In this document: positions 1,437 through 53,195 of the stretch, one piece after another | Layout: each line of letters starts with the position of its first letter | Numbering within the stretch: position 1 is the stretch's first letter | Sequence record: PP400784 | Direction: 5' to 3' (one strand) | DNA from: Escherichia phage FL38 | DNA: 64,000 bases | Notes under the pieces: generated by a model | Database searches by the model: none | Told to the model about the DNA's origin: nothing | Seen by the model: the letters and a program-made list of their open reading frames with translations, nothing else | Position numbers and translations under genes: made by a program

Positions 1437-1622
1437 TTAAGTTCTCTCCACTCTCACAACAACATATTCGCCAAACGAGTTAGATACTTCACGATCATAC
1501 CCGTACTTCTCCATAACTCGCAGAATTGCATTGTTTAATTCAGCACGGAAATAATTATAATCCTTATCAGGGATTCTGTCAACTACCCATTTTGCACCTT
1601 CTGACAAATCAACTTTAACCAT
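1437..1622 (-). CDS. hypothetical protein (61 aa)
   Basis: ATG with AGAGGA SD upstream; stop abuts rnh start; divergent from gene 34. Confidence 0.5.
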   Translation of the reverse strand: MVKVDLSEGAKWVVDRIPDKDYNYFRAELNNAILRVMEKYGYDREVSNSFGEYVVVRVERT

Positions 1623-1660
1623 AATATATCATCCTCTTTTGTTTCTATCAAGCCTCATTT

Positions 1661-1668
1661 TATAAATA
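1661..1668 (+). promoter_or_regulatory. T4-type late promoter motif TATAAATA upstream of gene 34
   Basis: Exact TATAAATA ~30 nt upstream of gp34 ATG. Confidence 0.5.
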
Positions 1669-1696
1669 TGAACATACTATAAAAGGAGACCCAATA

Positions 1697-4600
1697 ATGG
1701 CAGATTTTTCTCAACATTTCAAGGCCACATTTGGCTTTGACGCTGGTAATGAAAAGGTCGTCAATGTAGCATTGGCTGATAAGAATGTCAACACCGATGC
1801 GATCAACGTTGAATTTTTCAATTACCATAATGGTATTACTCAGTATGACACAACTCGCGGTTATGATCAATACGGAACTACAATCTATCAAAACCGTCCG
1901 TATTATGCAAAAGAAGATATCACAAAACCAGCAGGTGATTTTGACCCGACTAAATGGCAAGCACTGCGCACGGACCCACGTTGGGATTATATTGCAGCAA
2001 CTTCCGGTGATACTCCTTTACAGTCTGGTGATTATATCGCAGCAGATGGTCAATTTGCAAACTTGACTTTCTCTATGCCAACTAAGCCAGCAGAGGGAGA
2101 CACTATAACAGTAAAAGATATCGGTGGCAAGTGTGGTGTTAACGAATTATCGTTCTTGAGTACAGGACATGAGTTTTACCATAACGGTAATGTGTATAAC
2201 CGAAAATGGTATTGCACTACCCCGTATGCAATGAACTATTTCATCTTTGTTCGTAATCGTTGGCATGTTTATCAGACAGGAACAGAGCCACGCGGTGTGT
2301 ACGCACAGCCAGCGATTGATGCTATTCAAATGCAGAATGGTGATCAGGTATTTCGTCGTAGTTCGTTGGGTAATATTACCTTAGTGCTTCCTAAGTTTGC
2401 CAACAATGGCGACATGATCCAGACTACAGACCTTGACGGATTAACCGCAACCAACCACGTTACGGTTAAAGTTCATGAGCACGCAGAAGAACAATCAATT
2501 GGCACGTCCGGTCTAAAAGAGATTATCGGTAAGCGTAGCGGTCATGGTGTATTCATCTTTGACAAGACGGAAAACTTATGGCGTTTGTGGGATGGTGATC
2601 AGTCTGTTCGTCTTAAACCGATCATCGATGACACTCGCTTGCAACCTAATAGCTATGTTGCTGTATTTGGTGATCGTGATGTTACTCTGACGCTGCCGAC
2701 CAATATCGAGCCGGGTGATCGTATTCAAGTTTCTATGCAGTATATGAACGGAAACCAGAATTGCCGTATTATCACCGCCACAGAGGATACAAAAATCCTT
2801 ATGCAGAAAAACATGGTTCAGTTTCCTAAGCGTAGCGAGTACCCATTCAATGGGACCGATACATGGACGGGAGTATCTGAATTGTCTTTCAACGCTGCAA
2901 ATGATTATGTACCTTATCTGGAGTTCTCTTATTCAGAAGGTGATGATGGTAAGAAATACTGGTTGGTGGCACATCCTCACCCGATTGTAGAACGAGTAGA
3001 TCCGACTCGTAAAGATCGTGTTGGTGTAATTGCACTGGCTACCCAAACTGAAACGAATAAAAACCATGAAGAGAATCCTAGCGACGAAGTTGCAGTAACA
3101 CCAAAAATGCTGGCTAATAAAACCGCCAACGAAACTCGACGCGGTATTGCTCGCATTGCGACTCAAGCGGAAACGCATCAAGATACTGGTTCCAACTTCC
3201 TGGATGATGTTATCGTTACGCCTAAAAAGTTAAATGACTGTGTTGCTACCGAAGCCCGTCGTGGTGTGATGGAAATTGCAACCCAGCACGAAACCAATGA
3301 AGGTTTAGACGATACCCGCGCTATTACTCCTAAGAAATTAGAAGAACGTCGCGCTTCCGAAGATCTCGCTGGTATTGCTGAAATTGTTCAGGCTGGCGGC
3401 AGTGCTGCCGCTCGACGTGGCGAAGCTGGTACAGGGATCTATAACATCAATGACCATGCTAAAATTGTTACGCCAAAAAACATCAACGAAGTCAAGGCGA
3501 CCGAAACTTCCCGTGGTGTTGGCTATCTGGCAACTGACGCGGAAGTGCAAGGGGCTACAGAATCAACCCCGCAAGATGCTTTACTCATCACGACTCGCAC
3601 GCTAACGAAACGTACTGCTACCGAATCGCGCACTGGTATCGCTGAAATTGCAACTCAGGAAGAAACAAACTTAGGTCAAAGTGATAACCATATCATCACG
3701 CCTAAAAAGTTGCATACTCGCCGCGCAACGGAAACTTTACACGGTTTAGCAGAAATTGCAACTCAGCCGGAGTTTGACGCAGGTCGTGACGATTCTCGCA
3801 TTTCTACCCCATTGAAGATTAAAACCTTCTTTGAGAATGCACAGCGTTTGAAAGTAGATCCGACTCAGGGGCTTAACCTTACTGGTGATTTGTGGCAAGG
3901 TATCATGATCAGCGGTCTGGATGCAACCGAAGACACAAAAGGTGTCGCTAAAGTTGCTACTACTCAGCTTACTGACGCTGGTCAAGATGATACTACAATC
4001 ATCACGCCTAAAAAGCTGCAAGGCAAAAAGGCCACCGAAGGTAAAGAAGGCATTATCCGAGTTGGTACTCAAGCCGAAACCGTGGCTGGTATTATGGACA
4101 ATGTAGCAATTTCTCCGAAGAACTTCAAATATGTTGTTCAGACAGAGGATACATGGAAAGCAACCGAAGCGCGTCGTGGCTTCTTGAAAGTTGCTACTCA
4201 GGAAAACTGTTTTGTTGGTGATAATCTGCAAGGTTCTACTCAAGAACTAGGAAACTACCAGCATGACGGAATTGCTGTTACTCCGAAAGGATTAAACTAC
4301 GCACTTGCTAATTTCTTACCTAAGATGGCAACCGCTCAGAATAGTTTGAAATTGGGTAACGTAGAGGCCGCTAAATGGGCGCGTAGAGACATTGACCAGA
4401 CCATAGAGAGCAATTACACGTTTAATAAAAAAGTTAACGTGAAGGGCGATTTAGAGTGCTTAAAATCAGGTTCCTTTGAAACTCTGTCTGTGACTAAGAA
4501 CTCGACCGATGTTCCGAGTAATGGTCATCTGGTGTTGGGTGAGCGTGGAGTTGACGGTCACACCGGAATTACTCTGCATGGCACAACCGCATCGGAAGGC

Positions 4601-8376: not shown

Positions 8377-11166
8377 ATGGCAGATTTAAGCAGAATCCAA
8401 TTTAAACGCACTAGCACTAAAGGTCGTAAACCTGATGCTAGTACGATGAATCCGGGGGAATTGGCAATCAACCTTGCGGATCAATATCTTCTTACTAAAA
8501 ATGATTCCGGTGCTATTATCAATTTAAGTTGTCCTCCTGTTTATGACCGCGATGTTACAATGGCGGGTAAGGTTAAAGGTAATAATTATATCTTAAGTAA
8601 AACCGCTAACTATCTGGAAGATCAGACCGCACGAGATCTTAATTACTTTGGTGCTTTCCGAACTAATGGACAAGATGGTCTTTTAGATCTAACTCTTAAT
8701 GTTCCTCATTCTGCTGGCATTAATCATGGTCGAGGATTTACTTTCCGTTATGCGACTGGCGGATCTCGTGTTGAAACCTATGGGTATAATGCACAGGGAC
8801 AAAAAGCATTTAGCTATAAAATGTATCACGAAGGTGATAAACCAACTCCAGGAGAATTGAACGTCTATAGCAAACAAGAAATTGACCGGATGTTTGTTAA
8901 GAACGTTAAAATGGTTGTTCCTTCTGGTGGTACAAACCGTGGTTATTTTAAAATTGCATCCGCAATGATCCCGCAGAGTGGTCGGATGGCGTTTCTGCGA
9001 ATCTATGGTGGTAATGGATATAATGTAAACTCATATGACCAAGTTGATTTTCTTGAAATTGTTATTCGTAGTGGTAATAATAACCCTAAAGGCGTTAGTA
9101 TTGCTGCATATCGTCGAAATTCTTTGAACGTCCATGAAGTATTTGCAATTAATACTTCCGGTGATAGCTATGACATTTATGTTAACTATGGTCGTTACAC
9201 TGATAACGTTATTGTAGAGTTTGGAAAAACTGTTGACGTCGCATTGACTGTTCATGATGTTCCTGAATTTTCGGCGACTAAACCAGAAACCGGAACTAAA
9301 TTTGATGCTCGTGTTATTACGATGTTCAACACCGAAAACAAAGCCGGAACATTGATGTTTGATAATAACAATCAGTTAACCTATGATATTGTTAGCCTTA
9401 GCAATGGTCCTGATGATGTTAGAAATTATCTGCGTAAATTCCGAAGTAAAGCGGGTGAAATGATTTGGCATGAAACCGTTCAGGGTGCTGTATATCGTCT
9501 TGCTACTGGAACTACTGATTCTACGGAAGTTCTTAGAGTTGATTCTAACAGTGCTCTCCCGGGTAGCTATAAAGGATATGTAATTACTGGTAAAATGGAA
9601 TTGCACGGTAGCGGTAGTGCGATGAATTTACACCGCCAGACTGGTCAAGCTGCATATATGGCGTGGTGGGATCGTCGTGATGGTAAAAACCAACGTAGTG
9701 GTTATATCGGCCATGCGGATGGTACTACTGATGGTTTTGTGTGGCGTAATGATGTTGGTGCGAACTCATTTGATTTGGAAAGTAGTGGACAAGTAAATTT
9801 GACTACAGGAAAAACAAAAATTGTATATACCAACGGACAATATTATTCCGCTAACTCTGATGCATTCCGTATGATTTACGGCAATTATGGCGCATTCTGG
9901 CGTAATGACGGCACTAAAGTTTATCTTCTTTCTACTGCCGAAAATGATCGTTTTGGTGGATGGAACGGCAACCGACCATTCATTTACGATTTGACTTCCG
10001 GTAACGTTCAATTAGGCGGTGACGGTAACGAAGCTGCATTAACGTTAGAACGTGCAAGCAAAGCCGCTCGTTTTACGGGTGATGTTTATGTAGAAAAAGG
10101 TTTCCTTCATTTCTCTAGTGGACGATTAGGATCTCGTGATTTCTTTAAAATCAACCATTGGGGTGATAGCAATAACGGTCGTGATAACATTTTGCAGTTT
10201 GAAGACAATAGCGGTGCACACTTCACAACTGAACGTAAAATGGCAACCGGTGAAATTACTGCGCGATTTAAAGGATTTGTGCGTGTAGAATCTGGCGAAA
10301 TTACATTCCATGCTAACCGTGGTTCTTCTTCGCAATTTAGTCTCAATACATGGGGTAATGAATCACGAAAACAAGTTTTTGAATGTAAGGATGCAACAAG
10401 TTATCATTGGTATACCGAACGTACTGCGGGTGGAACTGGTCCGGTTAAGTTCTCTGTTGCAGGTTCTTTCTATAGCGGAAGCGATGCTAACGTAGGCGGT
10501 AGTCTGAATTTTGGTAATGCTATTCAACGCGGCGCTAGCGTCATTACTATAGATTCTGGTTCTGCGGGTGCTGGTTCTTTTGCATCTCAACATGATGATA
10601 ACGTCAAAGCACCTATTTTCCAACGTTTAGACCGTGGTGATGCGTCTACATATGTTCCTTTGATCAAGCAACGTTATGTTCAAGGTGCAGTAACATTCTC
10701 GTTGGGTATGCTTCTTAATGAAGGTTCATGGCGAGTTCATGTTAAAGGTTCTGGTGTTGAATCTAATACTACCTTCTATAAAAACGGCGATTTCCAAGCT
10801 GGACGCAATGGTAACTTTAACGACGTTTACATTCGCTCTGATGCTCGCCTTAAAATCAACAAGGAAGAGTATAAGGAGAATGCCACTGATAAAGTTAATC
10901 GCTTGACGGTATACACCTATGACAAGGTTAAATCTTTAACCGACCGTACTGTCATTGCTCATGAAGTTGGTATTATTGCTCAGGATCTTGAAAAAGAATT
11001 ACCGGAAGCAGTAACAACTTCTAACATCGGCGATCCCGATAAGCCAGAAGAGATCTTAACAATTTCTAACTCTGCTGTCAACGCTCTTTTAATTAAGGCG
11101 TTTCAGGAAATGAGCGAAGAATTGAATGCCGTTAAAGCTGAACTAGCGGAACTTAAAAAGAATTAA
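8377..11166 (+). CDS. 37: long tail fibre distal subunit gp37 (receptor-binding fibre) with C-terminal intramolecular chaperone domain
   Basis: 929 aa; N-terminus MADLSRIQFKRTSTKGRKPDAS..GELAINL and internal AGSFASQ..DASTYVPLIKQRYVQG match T4 gp37. Confidence 0.9.
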   Translation: MADLSRIQFKRTSTKGRKPDASTMNPGELAINLADQYLLTKNDSGAIINLSCPPVYDRDVTMAGKVKGNNYILSKTANYLEDQTARDLNYFGAFRTNGQDGLLDLTLNVPHSAGINHGRGFTFRYATGGSRVETYGYNAQGQKAFSYKMYHEGDKPTPGELNVYSKQEIDRMFVKNVKMVVPSGGTNRGYFKIASAMIPQSGRMAFLRIYGGNGYNVNSYDQVDFLEIVIRSGNNNPKGVSIAAYRRNSLNVHEVFAINTSGDSYDIYVNYGRYTDNVIVEFGKTVDVALTVHDVPEFSATKPETGTKFDARVITMFNTENKAGTLMFDNNNQLTYDIVSLSNGPDDVRNYLRKFRSKAGEMIWHETVQGAVYRLATGTTDSTEVLRVDSNSALPGSYKGYVITGKMELHGSGSAMNLHRQTGQAAYMAWWDRRDGKNQRSGYIGHADGTTDGFVWRNDVGANSFDLESSGQVNLTTGKTKIVYTNGQYYSANSDAFRMIYGNYGAFWRNDGTKVYLLSTAENDRFGGWNGNRPFIYDLTSGNVQLGGDGNEAALTLERASKAARFTGDVYVEKGFLHFSSGRLGSRDFFKINHWGDSNNGRDNILQFEDNSGAHFTTERKMATGEITARFKGFVRVESGEITFHANRGSSSQFSLNTWGNESRKQVFECKDATSYHWYTERTAGGTGPVKFSVAGSFYSGSDANVGGSLNFGNAIQRGASVITIDSGSAGAGSFASQHDDNVKAPIFQRLDRGDASTYVPLIKQRYVQGAVTFSLGMLLNEGSWRVHVKGSGVESNTTFYKNGDFQAGRNGNFNDVYIRSDARLKINKEEYKENATDKVNRLTVYTYDKVKSLTDRTVIAHEVGIIAQDLEKELPEAVTTSNIGDPDKPEEILTISNSAVNALLIKAFQEMSEELNAVKAELAELKKN
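10837..11166 (+). other. C-terminal intramolecular chaperone (peptidase S74-like) domain of gp37
   Basis: SDARLKINKEEY ... GIIAQDLEKELPEAV ... coiled-coil end; matches the SDxRLK autoproteolytic chaperone signature of phage fibres/endosialidases. Confidence 0.65.
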
Positions 11167-11206: not shown

Positions 11207-11446
11207 ATGGTCTATAATATCGTCATTGGTGCTTTGTCTAATTTCGGAATGAAATTATTGTCAAAGTTAATTAGTGAAAAGATGCTCACTAAAATTTTCT
11301 TCTATTGCGCTCGTCGTCTTGCGGATTATACCAATACGCCAATTGATGATCGTTTTGTGGAAGAACTTTATAAGGAGTTTAATAAAGATCAGTCAGAAGA
11401 TAGTAACGAGCAAGATAAACCTAGTGATAGTCAACTACCTAAATAA
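11207..11446 (+). CDS. hypothetical small protein (79 aa), N-terminal hydrophobic segment, acidic C-terminus
   Basis: SD AAGGAGAA; occupies the T4 gp38 position but is unrelated in size. Confidence 0.5.
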   Translation: MVYNIVIGALSNFGMKLLSKLISEKMLTKIFFYCARRLADYTNTPIDDRFVEELYKEFNKDQSEDSNEQDKPSDSQLPK

Positions 11447-11479
11447 GAGTACACTGTCATAGTTATCTTAGGGCATTAT

Positions 11480-12136
11480 ATGCAAGTTTCTGAAAAAGGG
11501 AAAGACTTTGCTATCTCAAATGTCCTGCGCGCTATTTTCACAACTAAAAGCACGGAGTTGCTCGTACTTCGTGTTTTTGCTGCCGTCGTGTTGTCCATAT
11601 TAGCATTTGTCGTTTATAGTAAAAACGAGTTATTTGCGCTTTATAAAGAGACTCGTTATGAGACTTATGCTCACATTCTCCAGGTAGAGAAAGACCGCAA
11701 TTTTGATAATGCAGCACAGGAGCAGTTACAGATAGTTCATGTGTCGGCTGATGCCGATTTTTCTGCTGTTTTTAGTTTTCGTCCGAAAAACCTAAACTAT
11801 TTTGTTGATTTGGTGGCATATGAAGGAAAGCTACCGCATACAATCGATGAAAAAAATTTAGGTGGATTCCCTATCAATAAAACGAGTGAAGAATATCGTA
11901 GGCATCTTTTAGGTAAATCCTATTTTACCGATAAAGATTTCCAGTATATTCCATCAAGAGAAAAGAAATTAGAGAATATCGATATAGGTTTCATGTATTC
12001 TTGTCCTATATTCAATCTCGATAATGTCTATTCTGGTAGTATCGCCATTTCATGGAAGAATAAACCGGATATTGACATTGAGAATTTAGATACTCTTTGC
12101 AATCAATCTGCCAGAATCCTCGGAAGGATTAGATAA
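11480..12136 (+). CDS. t: holin
   Basis: 218 aa; LEQLQIVHVSADADFSAVFSFRPKNLNYFVDLVAYEGKLP and C-terminal ARILGR match T4 holin T. Confidence 0.9.
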   Translation: MQVSEKGKDFAISNVLRAIFTTKSTELLVLRVFAAVVLSILAFVVYSKNELFALYKETRYETYAHILQVEKDRNFDNAAQEQLQIVHVSADADFSAVFSFRPKNLNYFVDLVAYEGKLPHTIDEKNLGGFPINKTSEEYRRHLLGKSYFTDKDFQYIPSREKKLENIDIGFMYSCPIFNLDNVYSGSIAISWKNKPDIDIENLDTLCNQSARILGRIR

Positions 12137-12142
12137 CTTAAA

Positions 12143-12173
12143 GGGGAAGCCTTTCGGCCTCCCCTTCTTTTTA
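12143..12173 (+). terminator. intrinsic terminator at convergence of late (+) and early (-) transcription
   Basis: GGGGAAGCC-TTTC-GGCCTCCCC hairpin then TTCTTTTTA; may act on both strands. Confidence 0.55.
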
Positions 12174-12419
12174 TTGGCGCATAGACGCGCCTGAATCGCA
12201 TTTTGACGCTGTATGATGAAAACAGGTAGCGTACCAGTCATCGGCTTGTTTGTCTTCGTCAGAAAACGCGTAATTGCGTTGTATGCCGTTTTCTACTTTG
12301 ACCAGTGCAATAGCTGTTTCTGGAAGATCAATCAATCGGACAAAATCGCCATCTTCCCATTCTACACGAGCAATATCATAACCCATCTCAAAATAAACAA
12401 TCACTTGCTCTAATCTCAT
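12171..12419 (-). CDS. hypothetical protein (82 aa)
   Basis: ORF with start overlapping the upstream stop. Confidence 0.45.
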   Translation of the reverse strand: MRLEQVIVYFEMGYDIARVEWEDGDFVRLIDLPETAIALVKVENGIQRNYAFSDEDKQADDWYATCFHHTASKCDSGASMRQ

Positions 12420-12763
12420 TCTGGAAACTTCCCGTAAACATTCTCTGCCAACTTACGTGCATCGCTAATAATATCTTTCATGTGATGGTCGTATTGCTTT
12501 GCCATAATAAGAATACAATCAATGAAGAATGAATAACGTCTAGAATTTACTAAAAAGTTTTTACCTAGTGAATCAAACGGATCTGGATCATCAAGTTCGA
12601 TAGATTCTCTAACTTTAGACAATTCTTTCATTACAAGGTTTACATCGTTTATAATATCTTTTGATTTATATGCGCCTTTCTTTAACAATATGGCGGTCAA
12701 TTCTGACGCAGTTTCTTGAAATTCTTTCTGATAAGCTGAGTTTACATCATCGATATTAAACAT
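12416..12763 (-). CDS. hypothetical protein (115 aa), tandem paralog A
   Basis: Starts MFNIDD, ends ENVYG; paralogous to the adjacent 12773..13105. Confidence 0.55.
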   Translation of the reverse strand: MFNIDDVNSAYQKEFQETASELTAILLKKGAYKSKDIINDVNLVMKELSKVRESIELDDPDPFDSLGKNFLVNSRRYSFFIDCILIMAKQYDHHMKDIISDARKLAENVYGKFPE

Positions 12764-12772
12764 AATCGCCTC

Positions 12773-13105
12773 TCAAATATTGCCGTAAATGTTTTCAGTC
12801 ATGGTTCTTGCTTCTTCCAGCATTTTGGTCATGCTCATGGTGTAGTTGTTATCTCGTACAGACTTAATAACGACAAGCAAGGAATCTAGGAAAACTTTAT
12901 ATACTCTCCATTTTACGCTATTGTTGAATAGTTTTATATCTTCTACTTTATCGATCAGATAACCTAAAACAGATAGCGCCTCGTTCACTTCTTCCGTTAC
13001 TTTACTGCCACTAAACCAGATGGGGTAAAGCTGGATTGACAGCGACCGTGCTGCCTCTTTCAGTTCGGTCGCCTTCCATGATTCATATTGATCAAAGTTA
13101 AACAT
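12773..13105 (-). CDS. hypothetical protein (110 aa), tandem paralog B
   Basis: Starts MFNFDQ, ends ENIYG; similar length and termini to 12416..12763. Confidence 0.55.
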   Translation of the reverse strand: MFNFDQYESWKATELKEAARSLSIQLYPIWFSGSKVTEEVNEALSVLGYLIDKVEDIKLFNNSVKWRVYKVFLDSLLVVIKSVRDNNYTMSMTKMLEEARTMTENIYGNI

Positions 13106-13117
13106 TATAGAATACCA

Positions 13118-13450
13118 TTACAGATGAAAACCTGTTACGATCACCGCATCGATCATACCGCTAGGAATAAACGGTTCGCCCTCTTTTATTTCAACTTTGA
13201 ATTGATGCCATTTCGCTAATACTTCTTCCGGTACACCCAGCGATTTGGCGTCTGCTTTAGTTTCATCCATAATCCAACTAGGCTGCATGAGAGCATAGTT
13301 TACATAGTCCATTTCTGGGGTCATGTCATCAATGTTAATATATTTGCAGTTGACGCGTTTCAGAATTTCAAATTCTTTATTGTCAACCTGTACCATGTAT
13401 AATTCAGTAGTTTCTGGAATCAGTTCCCACACAACCAGTACATTTTTCAT
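13118..13450 (-). CDS. hypothetical protein (110 aa)
   Basis: ORF in dense minus-strand array. Confidence 0.5.
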   Translation of the reverse strand: MKNVLVVWELIPETTELYMVQVDNKEFEILKRVNCKYINIDDMTPEMDYVNYALMQPSWIMDETKADAKSLGVPEEVLAKWHQFKVEIKEGEPFIPSGMIDAVIVTGFHL

Positions 13451-13458
13451 AGTTCACC

Positions 13459-13827
13459 TCACTTAACAAAGATTTTCTTTAATGCTTTCAGGATCGTTGC
13501 TTCCGGTGCTTCTTCCGGTGGAGGAAGCAATTCTACCACTTCCTCTTCCAACTCGATATAGTCTACCAGATATTCTACATAGAATGCAAGTGCTTCCATG
13601 AAATTAGATGCTACATCCGATTCACCACAAGCGCCTACATGCATTGTATAAACATCACTGCGATCAAGTTTGTGGATGCTTCCCAGATAGTTTCGGTTAT
13701 ACCAGACTTCCCACACTTTCAGCTTTCCGGTTTTGGTTGCTGTTTTATAATCGGTTTCGTAATGATGCAATTGACGTTGCAGATCATTGATAATAACACA
13801 TTTTTCGTAATTGTTTTGAATTTCCAT
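13459..13827 (-). CDS. hypothetical protein (122 aa)
   Basis: ORF in dense minus-strand array. Confidence 0.5.
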   Translation of the reverse strand: MEIQNNYEKCVIINDLQRQLHHYETDYKTATKTGKLKVWEVWYNRNYLGSIHKLDRSDVYTMHVGACGESDVASNFMEALAFYVEYLVDYIELEEEVVELLPPPEEAPEATILKALKKIFVK

Positions 13828-13837
13828 GATGTAATCC

Positions 13838-14029
13838 TCACTTATCGTTAAGAAGTTCTAAAACTTTCTGTCGTACTTTGTCAATATTAGTTGATTCAAA
13901 AACTGTACGGTATCCCCAGCTTTGACCGTATGAGCGCGAGCAATCCCCATATCCCCATTGTTCAACCTGATAGTATTCAAGGAATGGGTGCTGCCGAACT
14001 ATGATACCATCGCGATTAAAAATTACCAT
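13838..14029 (-). CDS. hypothetical protein (63 aa)
   Basis: ORF in dense minus-strand array. Confidence 0.4.
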   Translation of the reverse strand: MVIFNRDGIIVRQHPFLEYYQVEQWGYGDCSRSYGQSWGYRTVFESTNIDKVRQKVLELLNDK

Positions 14030-14052
14030 AATATAATCCTCACGTCAAAAAC

Positions 14053-14340
14053 TTATTTTCGGTTGTGGTCACGATATGTTTTAAAATATCCCTCGTACCA
14101 CGGTAAAATATCTGGATTTTTACCACTATACAGACATTTAACCATCATGTCAATAAGGCCATCTGGTGTTTGATAGTTTCCAGCTTTTATAAGCTCTTTG
14201 ATTAAAATCTCTCTGTATATGTCTTTCGGATCTTCGTAATCAACTTGTATTGTGGTTGTGGTCTCATTCAATTTGGTTTCTGGAGTATCTCGCATTGCAT
14301 CCCACCAATCTTTTGTGACCTTCATGTTATTGAATTGCAT
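14053..14340 (-). CDS. hypothetical protein (95 aa)
   Basis: ORF in dense minus-strand array. Confidence 0.5.
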   Translation of the reverse strand: MQFNNMKVTKDWWDAMRDTPETKLNETTTTIQVDYEDPKDIYREILIKELIKAGNYQTPDGLIDMMVKCLYSGKNPDILPWYEGYFKTYRDHNRK

Positions 14341-14351
14341 AATTTAACCTC

Positions 14352-15110
14352 TTACTTGCAAACGTATTGATCTACATCAATTGCGCCACCGAATGTAGGG
14401 TGACGTTTTTCAAATCGAATAGTTCCGTCGTTTGGTTCGAAAACGGAGTATTCATATAGATCTTTCTTGCCAACATTCTTATAAAACCCGCCTTTAGTCA
14501 TAACGGTTTCTTGTACGTTTGCTTTGTGTACGTTGTATTCGTCAATGTATACAAAATCAACCATCTTCCCATTTTTAATGGTTACTTTAAGATCTCCTGG
14601 CTGGTTTCCATATTTTGCATACAGTGGAGCTTCTTTAATTTTGGTGGAAATTCCATCTTTAATACTCCACTCATAACGAACGGTGCATTGATAGGTAAAA
14701 GTTTCGACCTTCGGTTCTTCCACCATTTTTTCTTCCTGTTTCGGTTGTTCTTCTTCAACCTTCGCAGAAGTCTCTGAATCGCTTTCTGACGCGGTTTCTT
14801 CTTTAGGTAATACATTCATCAAGTTTTGGATTTGAGCGTTGTATACAGCCTCCAGTGGCTGAATCTGCCCGATATTGATCATTGTATCACGAACAGTTTT
14901 ATTCCAGTTGAGTTGCTCTTGTTTAAGAGACGGATCAATCTTAACAGCCTTAACATATACTTCATGAAGTTTCGAATCCAGTGCGGAGATTGACTCATTA
15001 GCACAAATAAACTTCTCTGATTTGGTAGTGGCTTTAGCGCAATCAAAGGACGCAGCATTAGCACCGAAAGCAGTAGCGGAAAGAACGATAGCAGCGATAA
15101 TGTTTTTCAT
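14352..15110 (-). CDS. secreted protein with LprI/DUF1311-like N-terminal domain (candidate periplasmic lysozyme inhibitor)
   Basis: Signal peptide MKNIIAAIVLSATAFGANA; then SFDCAKATTKSEKFICANESISALDSKLHEVY, typical of DUF1311; Glu-rich linker; Cys-bracketed C-terminal domain. Confidence 0.55.
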   Translation of the reverse strand: MKNIIAAIVLSATAFGANAASFDCAKATTKSEKFICANESISALDSKLHEVYVKAVKIDPSLKQEQLNWNKTVRDTMINIGQIQPLEAVYNAQIQNLMNVLPKEETASESDSETSAKVEEEQPKQEEKMVEEPKVETFTYQCTVRYEWSIKDGISTKIKEAPLYAKYGNQPGDLKVTIKNGKMVDFVYIDEYNVHKANVQETVMTKGGFYKNVGKKDLYEYSVFEPNDGTIRFEKRHPTFGGAIDVDQYVCK

Positions 15111-15138: not shown

Positions 15139-15173
15139 GGGAGTATCTTACTACTCCCTTAATCCGGTGTCAA
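15139..15173 (-). promoter_or_regulatory. early promoter with inverted repeat (type II): -35 TTGACA, GGGAGTA/TACTCCC arms flanking -10 TAAGAT
   Basis: Minus strand reads TTGACA-17 nt-TAAGAT with a 7-bp palindrome around the -10; upstream of 14352..15110. Confidence 0.5.
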
Positions 15174-15405: not shown

Positions 15406-15618
15406 TTAATTTTTACCCGCTCGTGCATTAATACGCATTTTCTGAATAGCCATGATCTGGCTTACTGCTTCTTCTTTACGTTCTTGCGTGATAACGTGAC
15501 CAGATTCCGCAAACTCTCCCGCAACTTCTTCTACGATCTCGCGAACTTGAGAACGTCCAAAGATGCGGTTTCCTTCGTAGCTCATAAACTCGGTTACTAC
15601 TTGCTCGATAGATTTCAT
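15406..15618 (-). CDS. hypothetical protein (70 aa)
   Basis: ORF with SD; preceded by promoter/palindrome element. Confidence 0.5.
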   Translation of the reverse strand: MKSIEQVVTEFMSYEGNRIFGRSQVREIVEEVAGEFAESGHVITQERKEEAVSQIMAIQKMRINARAGKN

Positions 15619-15642
15619 GTGATTCTCCTTTCGTTTCGGTGT

Positions 15643-15678
15643 GGGAGTATGTTAATACTCCCATTTCTTTACGTCAAC
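15643..15678 (-). promoter_or_regulatory. early promoter with inverted repeat (type II): TTGACG-17 nt-TAACAT inside GGGAGTAT/ATACTCCC
   Basis: Seen on minus strand upstream of 15406..15618. Confidence 0.5.
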
Positions 15679-15684
15679 CAGTTT

Positions 15685-15927
15685 TTAGAAATTTTTCGCT
15701 TCTTCTTCGGTCATCATCACCGCGCATTCGTGCATAACTTTGAAAACCGGATCAATCATATCGAATGCTTCGCGGGACAGTTTACGAGAAGCGATTTTGA
15801 TTGCTTCTACGTCTTCTACTACAGGAACAAAAACAGTTTTCAGTTCATCGAGAACGGCAGCTTCTTTTTCATTCAGGAAGATACCAGCGTCATACAGTGC
15901 AACTTCGATAACATTAACTTTAACCAT
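15685..15927 (-). CDS. hypothetical protein (80 aa)
   Basis: ORF in dense minus-strand array. Confidence 0.5.
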   Translation of the reverse strand: MVKVNVIEVALYDAGIFLNEKEAAVLDELKTVFVPVVEDVEAIKIASRKLSREAFDMIDPVFKVMHECAVMMTEEEAKNF

Positions 15928-15966
15928 TTTAATTCCTCCAGTTCGTTTAGGTATGGGAGTATAATA

Positions 15967-16191
15967 CTACCGATGACCTTTGGCGTCAACTGCTTTTTTA
16001 TTATTTTCGTGAAAATTTTTCGTCGCCTCATGTGCTTTTCGCTGGGCTTCTTGTTGTGCTTGCTGGCGTGCTGCCTCTTGTGAAGCCATAACGGAAGCAT
16101 TTGCAGCAGTTACAGCCGCTACCATCGCTGCGGTATTAGCATTTACAGTACATGCACTAGCCAGCAAAGCAATTGCAATCATTTTCTTCAT
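15967..16191 (-). CDS. small secreted/lipoprotein-like protein (74 aa)
   Basis: Signal peptide MKKMIAIALLASAC with possible lipobox, Ala/Gln-rich. Confidence 0.5.
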   Translation of the reverse strand: MKKMIAIALLASACTVNANTAAMVAAVTAANASVMASQEAARQQAQQEAQRKAHEATKNFHENNKKAVDAKGHR

Positions 16192-16358
16192 AGTTTCCCC
16201 TTTAGGTTATCTTCGACCTTCACCCATTCCGCGTATTCTTGCGCGGCTACTTTCGGATTTAGTCCGTCTTCGTACATTGCTTCAAGTAATGCTTCGTCGG
16301 TGGGCTTATACCCTAGATAAGCCTCCACCTGATTTTTCCAAATTTTATACCAGTTCAT
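16188..16358 (-). CDS. hypothetical protein (start uncertain; internal ATG MNWYKIW chosen)
   Basis: Track ORF 16188..16427 overlaps the upstream gene by 65 nt; the internal ATG removes the overlap. Confidence 0.35.
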   Translation of the reverse strand: MNWYKIWKNQVEAYLGYKPTDEALLEAMYEDGLNPKVAAQEYAEWVKVEDNLKGKL

Positions 16359-26909: not shown

Positions 26910-27152
26910 TTAAATATCCTCCGCGATGTGCCGGAACAACTCCAGATCGTTTTTATCCAGAATGAAACCGCTACAATCAATAATCCCGTTACCGTAATTA
27001 TCGGTTAACAGTCGTTCCGTTGCCATGTATGCGCGTACTTTGTTGTTAAAATTCATTACATGTTGTGCATAGTCACAATGAATCTTTTGACGGTTCCACG
27101 CGACAATTGATTGTAGATGTATTACATTAGCCACATTATTAATAACAACCAT
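26910..27152 (-). CDS. hypothetical protein (80 aa; start chosen at ATG coupled to upstream stop)
   Basis: Track ORF 26910..27215 extends into the repeat; TGAnATG junction with the gene above. Confidence 0.45.
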   Translation of the reverse strand: MVVINNVANVIHLQSIVAWNRQKIHCDYAQHVMNFNNKVRAYMATERLLTDNYGNGIIDCSGFILDKNDLELFRHIAEDI

Positions 27153-27213
27153 ATCAAAACCCTCGCTTAGTGGAATGTTCTGGCATTTTATTGATACATT
27201 CAGCTTGGTAGTC
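27149..27213 (-). repeat. direct repeat copy 1 (~65 bp) spanning a gene junction
   Basis: About 85% identical to 27328..27391. Confidence 0.6.
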
Positions 27214-27330
27214 ACGAGATTTTTTTGACGAATTAAGAGCTACAGCCAAAAAATCCTGTAACTGTTCGTTTGTCATTTTTGGCTTACACCGCGTATCTAA
27301 ACCCTTCGTTCTTCTAGCTTCATTAGCCAT
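27154..27330 (-). CDS. hypothetical small protein (58 aa), ends ...ECINKMPEHSTKRGF
   Basis: Not in ORF track; C-terminus encoded by direct repeat copy 1. Confidence 0.4.
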   Translation of the reverse strand: MANEARRTKGLDTRCKPKMTNEQLQDFLAVALNSSKKSRDYQAECINKMPEHSTKRGF

Positions 27331-27391
27331 ATCAAAAACCTCGCTTAGTGAAATGCTCGATCATTTTATTGATACATGCAGCTTCACTATC
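27328..27391 (-). repeat. direct repeat copy 2 (~65 bp) spanning a gene junction
   Basis: About 85% identical to 27149..27213. Confidence 0.6.
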
Positions 27392-27499
27392 GCCGGACAC
27401 GTTCCAGCCGTATAGACCCCATCTAAAGCACATGGTAACAGTTCCATTGTGACGGCTTACCGTCACATCATTAAATTCTGGGATACTTCGCATAATCAT
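27332..27499 (-). CDS. hypothetical small protein (55 aa), ends ...ACINKMIEHFTKRGF
   Basis: Not in ORF track; SD GAGGAAA; C-terminus encoded by direct repeat copy 2. Confidence 0.4.
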   Translation of the reverse strand: MIMRSIPEFNDVTVSRHNGTVTMCFRWGLYGWNVSGDSEAACINKMIEHFTKRGF

Positions 27500-27509
27500 A
27501 ATAATTTCC

Positions 27510-52168: not shown

Positions 52169-52669
52169 TTAACCGATTTTATCAAGTTCGTTTAATGCTT
52201 TCTCTGCTTCCTGTATAGCTTGCACCCTTTCCGGCATTTTGTCAAGAAAATCTTTCAACTCTTCAAAACTGGAGATATGACGCAATGCGTTAGCACCGAT
52301 AGCCGCATGTGATTTGCATTCAAAGCGGATTTTATAATTATCCATCGCCAATTTGAGAAGGTCTATTAGATCATATTCATGACCAGGCAATAAAACTTCT
52401 TTGAAGCACGCTCGGTCGCCATCGGAAAACCATATATTATCACCAACATCGATAGAACTAATATAATCCCCTTCGTGATTATAGATTGAACGTACATTAC
52501 CCCAACGGTCTACCGTAGCGACAGTAAATGGTTTATCTAGATATGTAAACACACCATCAATATTAGGTTTTTGTTCGTAACGCCAACAATCACGCAAAAT
52601 GCGCTTTTCGTCCTCACCAACCAACTTATATGTCTTCCCTTCTTCCCATTTCATAATATCATCTCTCAT
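52169..52669 (-). CDS. repeat-domain family protein (1 domain + helical tail)
   Basis: MKWEEGKTY...KPFTVATVD...DRACFKEV, tail with LKDFLDKMP. Confidence 0.6.
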   Translation of the reverse strand: MRDDIMKWEEGKTYKLVGEDEKRILRDCWRYEQKPNIDGVFTYLDKPFTVATVDRWGNVRSIYNHEGDYISSIDVGDNIWFSDGDRACFKEVLLPGHEYDLIDLLKLAMDNYKIRFECKSHAAIGANALRHISSFEELKDFLDKMPERVQAIQEAEKALNELDKIG

Positions 52670-53195
52670 TTTTGATACGTGATTCTAATTGGATCATACG
52701 GTCGCGCGTTTGTTTGTATTCTCGGATAGCACCGATCCGGCTAGGCATACCATCCAGTACGCTCTTAATACCTTCTAGGGTAGTGATTTTAGCAATGCTA
52801 TTATGCAACCCCATCTTATCGATCAACTGAATGTCGTAGGCTTCCATAAGCAGACCCAGACGTTCTAAAGTTAGGTCTTCTTCTTTTTCTTCAGAATCTG
52901 GAATCTTAGGTTCAATAATAACTTCGGTAAAGAAACGACGCTCACCCGACCAAAACCACACACCGGAACAGCCAATAGGGGATTCTTTTAACGTCATAGA
53001 GTCGAAATCACTACCGATAATAGTAATTTCTCTAACATCACCATCATCGTCAATGTCTTCTACCCTAAACGGGCGACCAGCCAACAAGTCAACAATACAT
53101 CTGTTAATAGACGACGAAAATTTAGTCAGTTCGGCTTTCGACGCTTCGCATTCAATCTTGTAAGTTTTACCAACTTCCCATTCCATAATAATCAC
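52659..53195 (-). CDS. repeat-domain family protein (1 domain + helical tail)
   Basis: MEWEVGKTY...RPFRVEDID...ERRFFTEV, tail with LDGMP. Confidence 0.6.
   Translation of the reverse strand: MIIMEWEVGKTYKIECEASKAELTKFSSSINRCIVDLLAGRPFRVEDIDDDGDVREITIIGSDFDSMTLKESPIGCSGVWFWSGERRFFTEVIIEPKIPDSEEKEEDLTLERLGLLMEAYDIQLIDKMGLHNSIAKITTLEGIKSVLDGMPSRIGAIREYKQTRDRMIQLESRIKNER

Follow-up and report, generated by a model that had tools for sequence, protein, structure and literature searches.

A hypervariable, copy-number-variable pair of paralogous small genes in the RB49-like Escherichia phage FL38

Escherichia phage FL38 (sequence record PP400784), of which a stretch of 64,000 nucleotides (the window) was analysed here, belongs to the genus Krischvirus, in the RB49-like group of T4-type coliphages; positions 11400-14400 are 99.6% identical by megablast to Escherichia phage kvi and ~95% identical to RB49 and some 60 relatives. 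Close to the holin gene t, the window carries two minus-strand open reading frames (ORFs) 9 nt apart, both of them real: copy B (12773..13105, 110 aa), the promoter-proximal paralog and ortholog of RB49p257, and copy A (12416..12763, 115 aa), the promoter-distal paralog and positional equivalent of RB49p256. Our results indicate that copies A and B are, almost certainly, paralogs with a four-helix-bundle fold that are restricted to one genus and form a hypervariable cassette. The first-pass annotation of this DNA had correctly pointed to an unknown gene but missed its most informative property, namely that it is a hypervariable, copy-number-variable cassette in an otherwise near-identical genome. 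Searchable literature and annotation record neither function nor paralogy for RB49p256 and RB49p257, which are listed as 'hypothetical proteins', and the literature on anti-defense in Krischvirus or RB49 yielded nothing concerning copies A and B. The island of divergence is what is new here.

That the two genes form a tandem paralog pair of an uncharacterised gene, as first proposed from their similar length and termini, is borne out by pairwise, profile and structural evidence. BLASTP aligns A and B over their whole length at 28% identity (E=2e-10), with a Smith-Waterman score 13.3 standard deviations above shuffles. Among 644 stop-to-stop ORFs of the window, a hidden Markov model (HMM) built from the A clade only has copy B as its sole other match (E=2e-11), and a B-only HMM finds copy A (E=9e-9). 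In addition, both copies fall in the same narrow family, phrog_9457 (PHROGs v4, function unknown), copy A with E=1.8e-33 (residues 12-115 on profile positions 6-107 of 107) and copy B with E=3.7e-30 (residues 7-109 on positions 1-104). The similarity is not confined to the termini: after head and tail were trimmed, the A-clade profile still spans the whole B core (E=8.7e-6). The reverse direction is weak in the trimmed core (B-HMM to A, E=0.06), and the Smith-Waterman score of this core was matched by 58 of 5000 shuffles.

The residues kept in both paralogs are E39-V40-N41, R68-Y69..F72.D74, Y88, A99-R100 and E104-N105.Y107-G108 (copy B numbering), while helix 1, the loop between helices 2 and 3 and other surface positions vary freely. 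Copy A keeps the MFNxD N-terminus, which RB49p256 has lost, and the copy A C-terminus, ...ARKLAENxYGKFPE, is kept in nearly all alleles.

The helical composition noted at first sight agrees with AlphaFold2, which gives the same up-down four-helix bundle for both proteins. Copy B is modelled with pLDDT 93 and pTM 0.87 (helices 9-30, 33-52, 64-86 and 92-107) and copy A with pLDDT 87.6 and pTM 0.81 (helices 9-28, 34-57, 67-90 and 95-110), the loop 58-66 of the latter being of low confidence. Both have a pI of 5.2, with net charges of -4.3 (A) and -2.5 (B), and the RB49 ortholog of B has a pI of 7.9. The copies are thus predicted to be small, soluble, mildly acidic four-helix bundles without catalytic motifs. 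No transmembrane segment or signal peptide is evident in the translations, and scans against Pfam, NCBIfam and PADLOC gave no family above threshold; hits to ACT_ACR9_C, SAP, a BTA121 lipoprotein and a Type I specificity subunit were discarded as sub-threshold noise. Neither the family searches nor the fold searches gave an enzyme-like match. Searched against PDB sequences, the family profile returned nothing below E=0.09, and in BFVD the sole Foldseek match was the JEP8 ortholog. A fold match to part of a 350-residue protein, at 6-11% identity and a root-mean-square deviation of 3.4-3.9 A, was likewise set aside as generic helical packing and not a relationship.

The first-pass annotation had also spoken of a local duplication. 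The paralogy stands, but a recent event does not: synonymous divergence (dS) between A and B is saturated (1.5), only ~30% of residues are in common, and there is no A/B nucleotide similarity past the first 8 bases, ATGTTTAA. Given this lack of nucleotide similarity, and the lack of meaningful direct repeats at A and B, a recent duplication or gene conversion is ruled out. The absence of similarity beyond those 8 bases together with the saturated dS marks the duplication as ancient.

The pair stands out sharply when the window is compared with RB49, to which it is 96.8% identical overall. In sliding identity the flanks of the pair reach 98-100% at the nucleotide level, and within it identity drops to ~74% in copy B and to 31-64% in copy A (100-nt windows). 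The resulting divergence island (12430..13110, from the boundary map) is coextensive with copies B and A, with edges at ~13110, the start of B, and ~12430, ~60 nt before the stop of A. Only three stretches in the 64 kb are comparably divergent: 9901-10901 (the gp37 tip), 12401-13201 (the pair) and 15601-16301 (small early genes). The first of these lies in 8377..11166 (plus strand), which encodes a gp37-like distal long-tail-fibre protein of 929 aa whose C-terminal part is unalignable with RB49 over ~1 kb. This is the expected swap of a receptor-binding tip, in a genome otherwise 97% identical, and it serves as a yardstick for the pair.

Nei-Gojobori estimates of the window against RB49 point in the same direction. 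Copy B and RB49p257 share 67% amino acid identity, with a nonsynonymous divergence (dN) of 0.21, dS of 0.78 and dN/dS of 0.27; for copy A and RB49p256 (~50-60% amino acid identity) dS is 1.30 and dN/dS 0.24. In contrast, dS is 0.015-0.08 in t and in p258-p262. Against other A alleles, copy A shows 38-60% amino acid identity and a dS of 1.2-2.5 or saturated. High dS relative to the neighbours, with dN/dS well below 1, shows that the alleles long predate the genomes in which they are found and are under purifying selection; they were brought in by recombination and did not arise by recent mutation.

Copy number varies as well. A tblastn search of 50,697 phage records detected B in 48 and A in 58; all 58 Krischvirus records thus carry copy A, and 10 lack copy B. 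By haplotype, 46 are RB49-type, 2 kvi-type and 10 single-A, with none empty, and the ORFs are intact in every haplotype seen. The A alleles number at least five (115, 107, 103/104, 113 and 110 aa), and there are two B allele groups that are ~67-70% identical to each other. The RB49-type B is partnered by A107 together with p256.1, or by A113 (locus L003), and apparently by a 103-type A in L012, a short and possibly chimeric contig. The kvi-like B is found with A115 (the window) or A103 (L013), and A103/104 occurs without B in ECD7, MIZ4, L009 and L010. From these combinations, alleles of A and B are seen to assort independently. The RB49-type ORF p256.1 (L001, 4327..4452, minus strand), a possible gene or else a remnant of the junction, spans 41 codons between B and A and overlaps the start of A; it is 87-92% conserved in the metagenomic L011 and L012 and is not present in the window, L003 or L013. 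The window and the RB49p256/RB49p257 locus have the same gene order and differ in their alleles and in the intervening p256.1.

The family has a very narrow distribution. Only 4 clusters were returned when 1.84 billion cluster representatives were searched with its profile, and word-indexed searches of 5.8 billion sequences gave 24 B-type and 6 A-type clusters, none of which carries a Pfam domain and among which the lone named match is a 'hypothetical protein'. Wherever a listed tblastn record gives a genus or a line of taxonomy, the genus is Krischvirus; a scan of IMG/VR found no relatives of the family, and a metagenome scan added four further loci only. The distant members, in all cases that could be placed, show the order p258, (B), A, Tad2-like gene, convergent with t. 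Judged from these searches, the family is essentially confined to Krischvirus.

The pair is part of a block of small leftward genes that begins at gene 52 (topoisomerase) and ends at a terminator, and the order p258, B, A, Tad2-like gene and t is the same in the window and in RB49. The terminator hairpin (12143..12168) is common to this block and to the rightward late gene t (11480..12136, plus strand), between which it lies; it has a GC-rich 12-bp stem, a minus-strand RNA fold of -23.6 kcal/mol (z=-3.7) and, when read on the plus strand, a T-run after the hairpin. A and B are the second and third genes from the terminator. The early view that they lie immediately downstream of the point where late and early transcription converge is accordingly right as to vicinity but not as to 'immediately', given that the 82-aa Tad2-like gene (12171..12419, minus strand) separates copy A from the terminator and is itself the direct neighbour of t.

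Copies A and B are probably early genes, transcribed together with the other small genes that lie between gene 52 and t. We infer early expression from the strand, from sigma70-like matches upstream and from the lack of a late motif nearby: the motif TATAAATA occurs nowhere near the pair. The nearest upstream sigma70-like match on the minus strand (14125..14153, TTGACA-17-TATAGT, 11/12) in a consensus scan makes 14153 a candidate early promoter, by consensus match only, of the transcript that includes the pair. The same scan gave further same-strand matches upstream at 15173 and 15395 and listed no terminator-like site between the promoter matches and the pair. In this regard, the novel ORFs of these phages are apparently expressed coordinately with early genes (Nolan et al. 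2006, PMC1524935). No structured RNA at the locus matched Rfam on either strand at E<=0.1.

The signals for translation differ between the two copies. Copy A has a Shine-Dalgarno sequence, GAGAGG, that overlaps the 9-nt spacer between B and A (12764..12772), and GAGG-type sites precede five upstream genes as well. Copy B, unlike these, has no recognisable Shine-Dalgarno (upstream ...TAATGGTATTCTATA-ATG; 13106..13117), and its ATG lies 12 nt past the stop of the upstream 110-aa gene; these two features suggest translational coupling or low expression of copy B.

The 82-aa neighbour of copy A matches Pfam PF11195 (Tad2-like/DUF2829; E=2.6e-5, 25.1 bits, cutoff 25) and also phrog_1048. The same Pfam assignment is precomputed for a 95%-identical cluster representative and for orthologs in L004, L013 and L014. 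This gene, whose ATG overlaps the stop of copy A (ATGA), is the final one ahead of the terminator. The protein, annotated as hypothetical, is the sole lead to function at the locus and a candidate anti-Thoeris sponge of a T4-type coliphage. Its identity to RB49p255 is 98%, and yet its dS is raised (0.23 against RB49), probably through hitch-hiking with the adjacent island. Copies A and B themselves have no PF11195 match in the Pfam scan, in which the neighbour alone matches.

The wider setting recalls a known T4 region. Two genes upstream of copy B lies the equivalent of p259 (13459..13827, minus strand, 122 aa), annotated in RB49 as similar to the T4 12.8-kDa protein of the AsiA-MotA region, and its L013 ortholog (1439..1807) carries PF26821 (Phage_T4_Y16F), which makes it a T4 Y16F homolog. 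On the strength of this homolog, the locus is syntenic with the T4 asiA-arn-motA accessory block. The p259 equivalent has no BLASTP match to T4 Arn.2 or Arn.3, so that its T4 counterpart is a different ORF of the region. As for A and B, homology to T4 Arn was rejected (hhalign probability 0.3%), none was found to Arn.2 or Arn.3, and DNA mimicry of the Ocr, Arn or ArdA anti-restriction type does not fit proteins that are not strongly acidic (pI 5.2, charge -2.5 to -4.3).

Taken together, the universal presence of A, the depth of the alleles, their reassortment and a divergence at the level of a tail-fibre tip suggest that the proteins bind a variable host component stoichiometrically. The translational coupling of A to the Tad2-like gene and the synteny with the T4 asiA-arn region would point toward counter-defence or host takeover. 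We therefore tentatively favour, at a level of confidence that falls short of calling it probable, the idea that A and B are stoichiometric, non-enzymatic binders of a host or defence protein; in the host takeover variant, the function affected would be one exposed to immune surveillance. Like T4 Arn, Tad1/Tad2 and Acb2, they are short non-enzymatic proteins among accessory genes, and A abuts a Tad2-like gene; unlike those proteins, A and B match no solved structure by sequence. The conserved core at the middle of the bundle would maintain the fold or a common function, and helix 1, the loop between helices 2 and 3 and other surface positions would carry allele-specific recognition. Diverged A and B alleles would be swapped independently by homologous recombination in conserved flanks, with possible anchors at the p258 stop/B start, at the B/A junction and in the stretch formed by the Tad2-like gene and the final ~60 nt of A, and they would be kept by long-term balancing or frequency-dependent selection imposed by variable hosts. 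In a more specific version, possible but rather unlikely in our estimation, the A slot, to which B is an optional addition, would be an exchangeable cassette that sets specificity, and the proteins a hitherto unrecognised family active in counter-defence or defence evasion. An E. coli immunity protein would be polymorphic, and each deeply diverged allele would neutralise, or avoid being recognised by, its own variant of that protein. On this version the exchange of A and B alleles among Krischviruses by recombination would resemble that of tail-fibre tips, an intracellular analogue of the swapping of receptor-binding proteins.

Several observations weigh against binding of a host or defence protein. 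The association with counter-defence hangs on one neighbour whose Pfam score of 25.1 bits only just clears the cutoff of 25; this Tad2-like protein matches no solved structure by sequence. Fold searches with A and B returned generic helical-bundle matches only (Z <=8.3). With an overall dN/dS below 1, the data do not demonstrate positive selection; a recombination hot spot combined with ordinary purifying selection could give the same pattern. Finally, B is dispensable, being absent from 10 of the 58 phages. Early expression, mode of binding and counter-defence role are inferred.

Among the alternatives, it is unlikely that A and B are unimportant accessory ORFs that have no specific host target and vary because constraint is relaxed and because the end of their transcription unit is a hot spot of recombination. 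T4-type genomes do hold many dispensable small early ORFs (PMC1524935), a description that the missing B genes and the absence of a known domain in Pfam, NCBIfam and PADLOC would fit, and the dN/dS of the pair alleles (0.24-0.32) exceeds that of several neighbours (0.04-0.13). These ratios, however, remain well below 1 at saturated dS, and the ORFs are intact in all haplotypes seen, with A in 58 of 58 records. AlphaFold is moreover confident from a shallow alignment, and a set of motifs has been kept across paralogs that split long ago.

A further alternative is a signal-molecule sponge: like the small phage proteins Tad1, Tad2 and Acb2, A and B would capture an immune second messenger (cyclic nucleotides or gcADPR-like molecules), here as oligomers and in complement to the neighbouring Tad2-like protein. 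N41, Y69, D74, Y88, R100, E104, N105 and Y107 are invariant or nearly so across paralogs of ~30% identity; helix geometry in the models would place conserved polar and aromatic residues at mid-height of the bundle, and copy A is translationally coupled to the Tad2-like gene. Known sponges are small, non-enzymatic phage proteins (bioRxiv 10.1101/2023.05.01.538930 and 10.1101/2023.11.15.567273). Nevertheless, the conserved polar residues may be merely structural, neither sequence nor fold resembles solved structures above the generic level, and a conserved small-molecule ligand leaves the extreme allelic divergence elsewhere in the protein unexplained, all of which makes a sponge quite unlikely.

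Position alone brings AsiA into consideration, that is, a functional analog in which the small helical A and B bind sigma70 or RNA polymerase and shut off or redirect host transcription. In T4, asiA adjoins t on the opposite strand, and in RB49 neither MotA nor middle promoters were found, AsiA being listed only for RB69, 44RR, Aeh1 and KVP40 (PMC1524935); for these reasons a positional AsiA analog is worth testing. Like T4 AsiA, A and B are small all-helical proteins of a T4-type phage, and their genes too lie where a leftward early block ends, on the other strand from t. The A/B family differs in being hypervariable and copy-number polymorphic, and here t is adjoined by the Tad2-like gene instead. 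Homology was rejected, hhalign of the family alignment against T4 AsiA giving a probability of 0.5% over 13 columns with no Pfam AsiA match, and the fold searches found no AsiA-like fold for A and B. The topology of AsiA also appears to differ from that predicted here, and we regard such an analog as very unlikely. Highly improbable, lastly, is a module for phage-phage competition or self-protection (superinfection exclusion, or an immunity or antitoxin-like pair, with A counteracting B or some other product of a phage), since two co-transcribed small proteins with linked yet separable inheritance, and a hypervariability also typical of competition loci, are met by the facts that A and B are homologous and not a toxin and antidote of different folds, that A stands alone in many phages, that no transmembrane segment or signal peptide for exclusion at the envelope is evident and that the PADLOC scan gave no match.

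Other parts of the window are variable or unusual in their own right. The stretch 15601..16301 is a second island of divergence and indels relative to RB49, among small early genes, where identity falls to a minimum of 0. The window has there the minus-strand ORFs 15685..15927 (80 aa) and 15967..16191 (74 aa), the product of the latter with a signal-peptide-like N-terminus, MKKMIAIALLASACTVNA, and RB49 has p264-p266; this may be another exchangeable accessory cassette. Upstream of the pair, 14352..15110 (minus strand) encodes a protein of 252 aa with an N-terminal signal peptide and a lysozyme-inhibitor-like LprI/DUF1311 domain (Pfam E=1.4e-4, 22.6 bits, cutoff 22); an acidic linker and an unassigned C-terminal domain come next. 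Its RB49 counterpart, p262, is annotated as hypothetical. A secreted early protein of the LprI/DUF1311 kind is unusual. Shorter stretches of lower identity to RB49 occur at 27101..27501 and 52301..52701, with minima of 0.37 and 0.58 in 200-nt windows.

Together, our findings place the pair among the small accessory early genes of plastic regions in T4-type genomes. Should binding of a host or defence protein prove wrong, A and B would be one more family of dispensable early ORFs in such a region, and the main use of this work would be a correction of annotation, which should show the two genes as paralogs and their family as limited to a single genus. The natural alleles, at least five of A and at least two of B in one- and two-copy arrangements, lie in nearly isogenic backgrounds and amount to a ready-made swap experiment, which, if the binding of a host or defence protein holds, could lead to a new counter-defence activity and its bacterial target. 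RB49-like phages are in use in phage therapy and biocontrol collections, and the pair would in that case provide a compact, tractable marker of host-range determination after adsorption in these phages.
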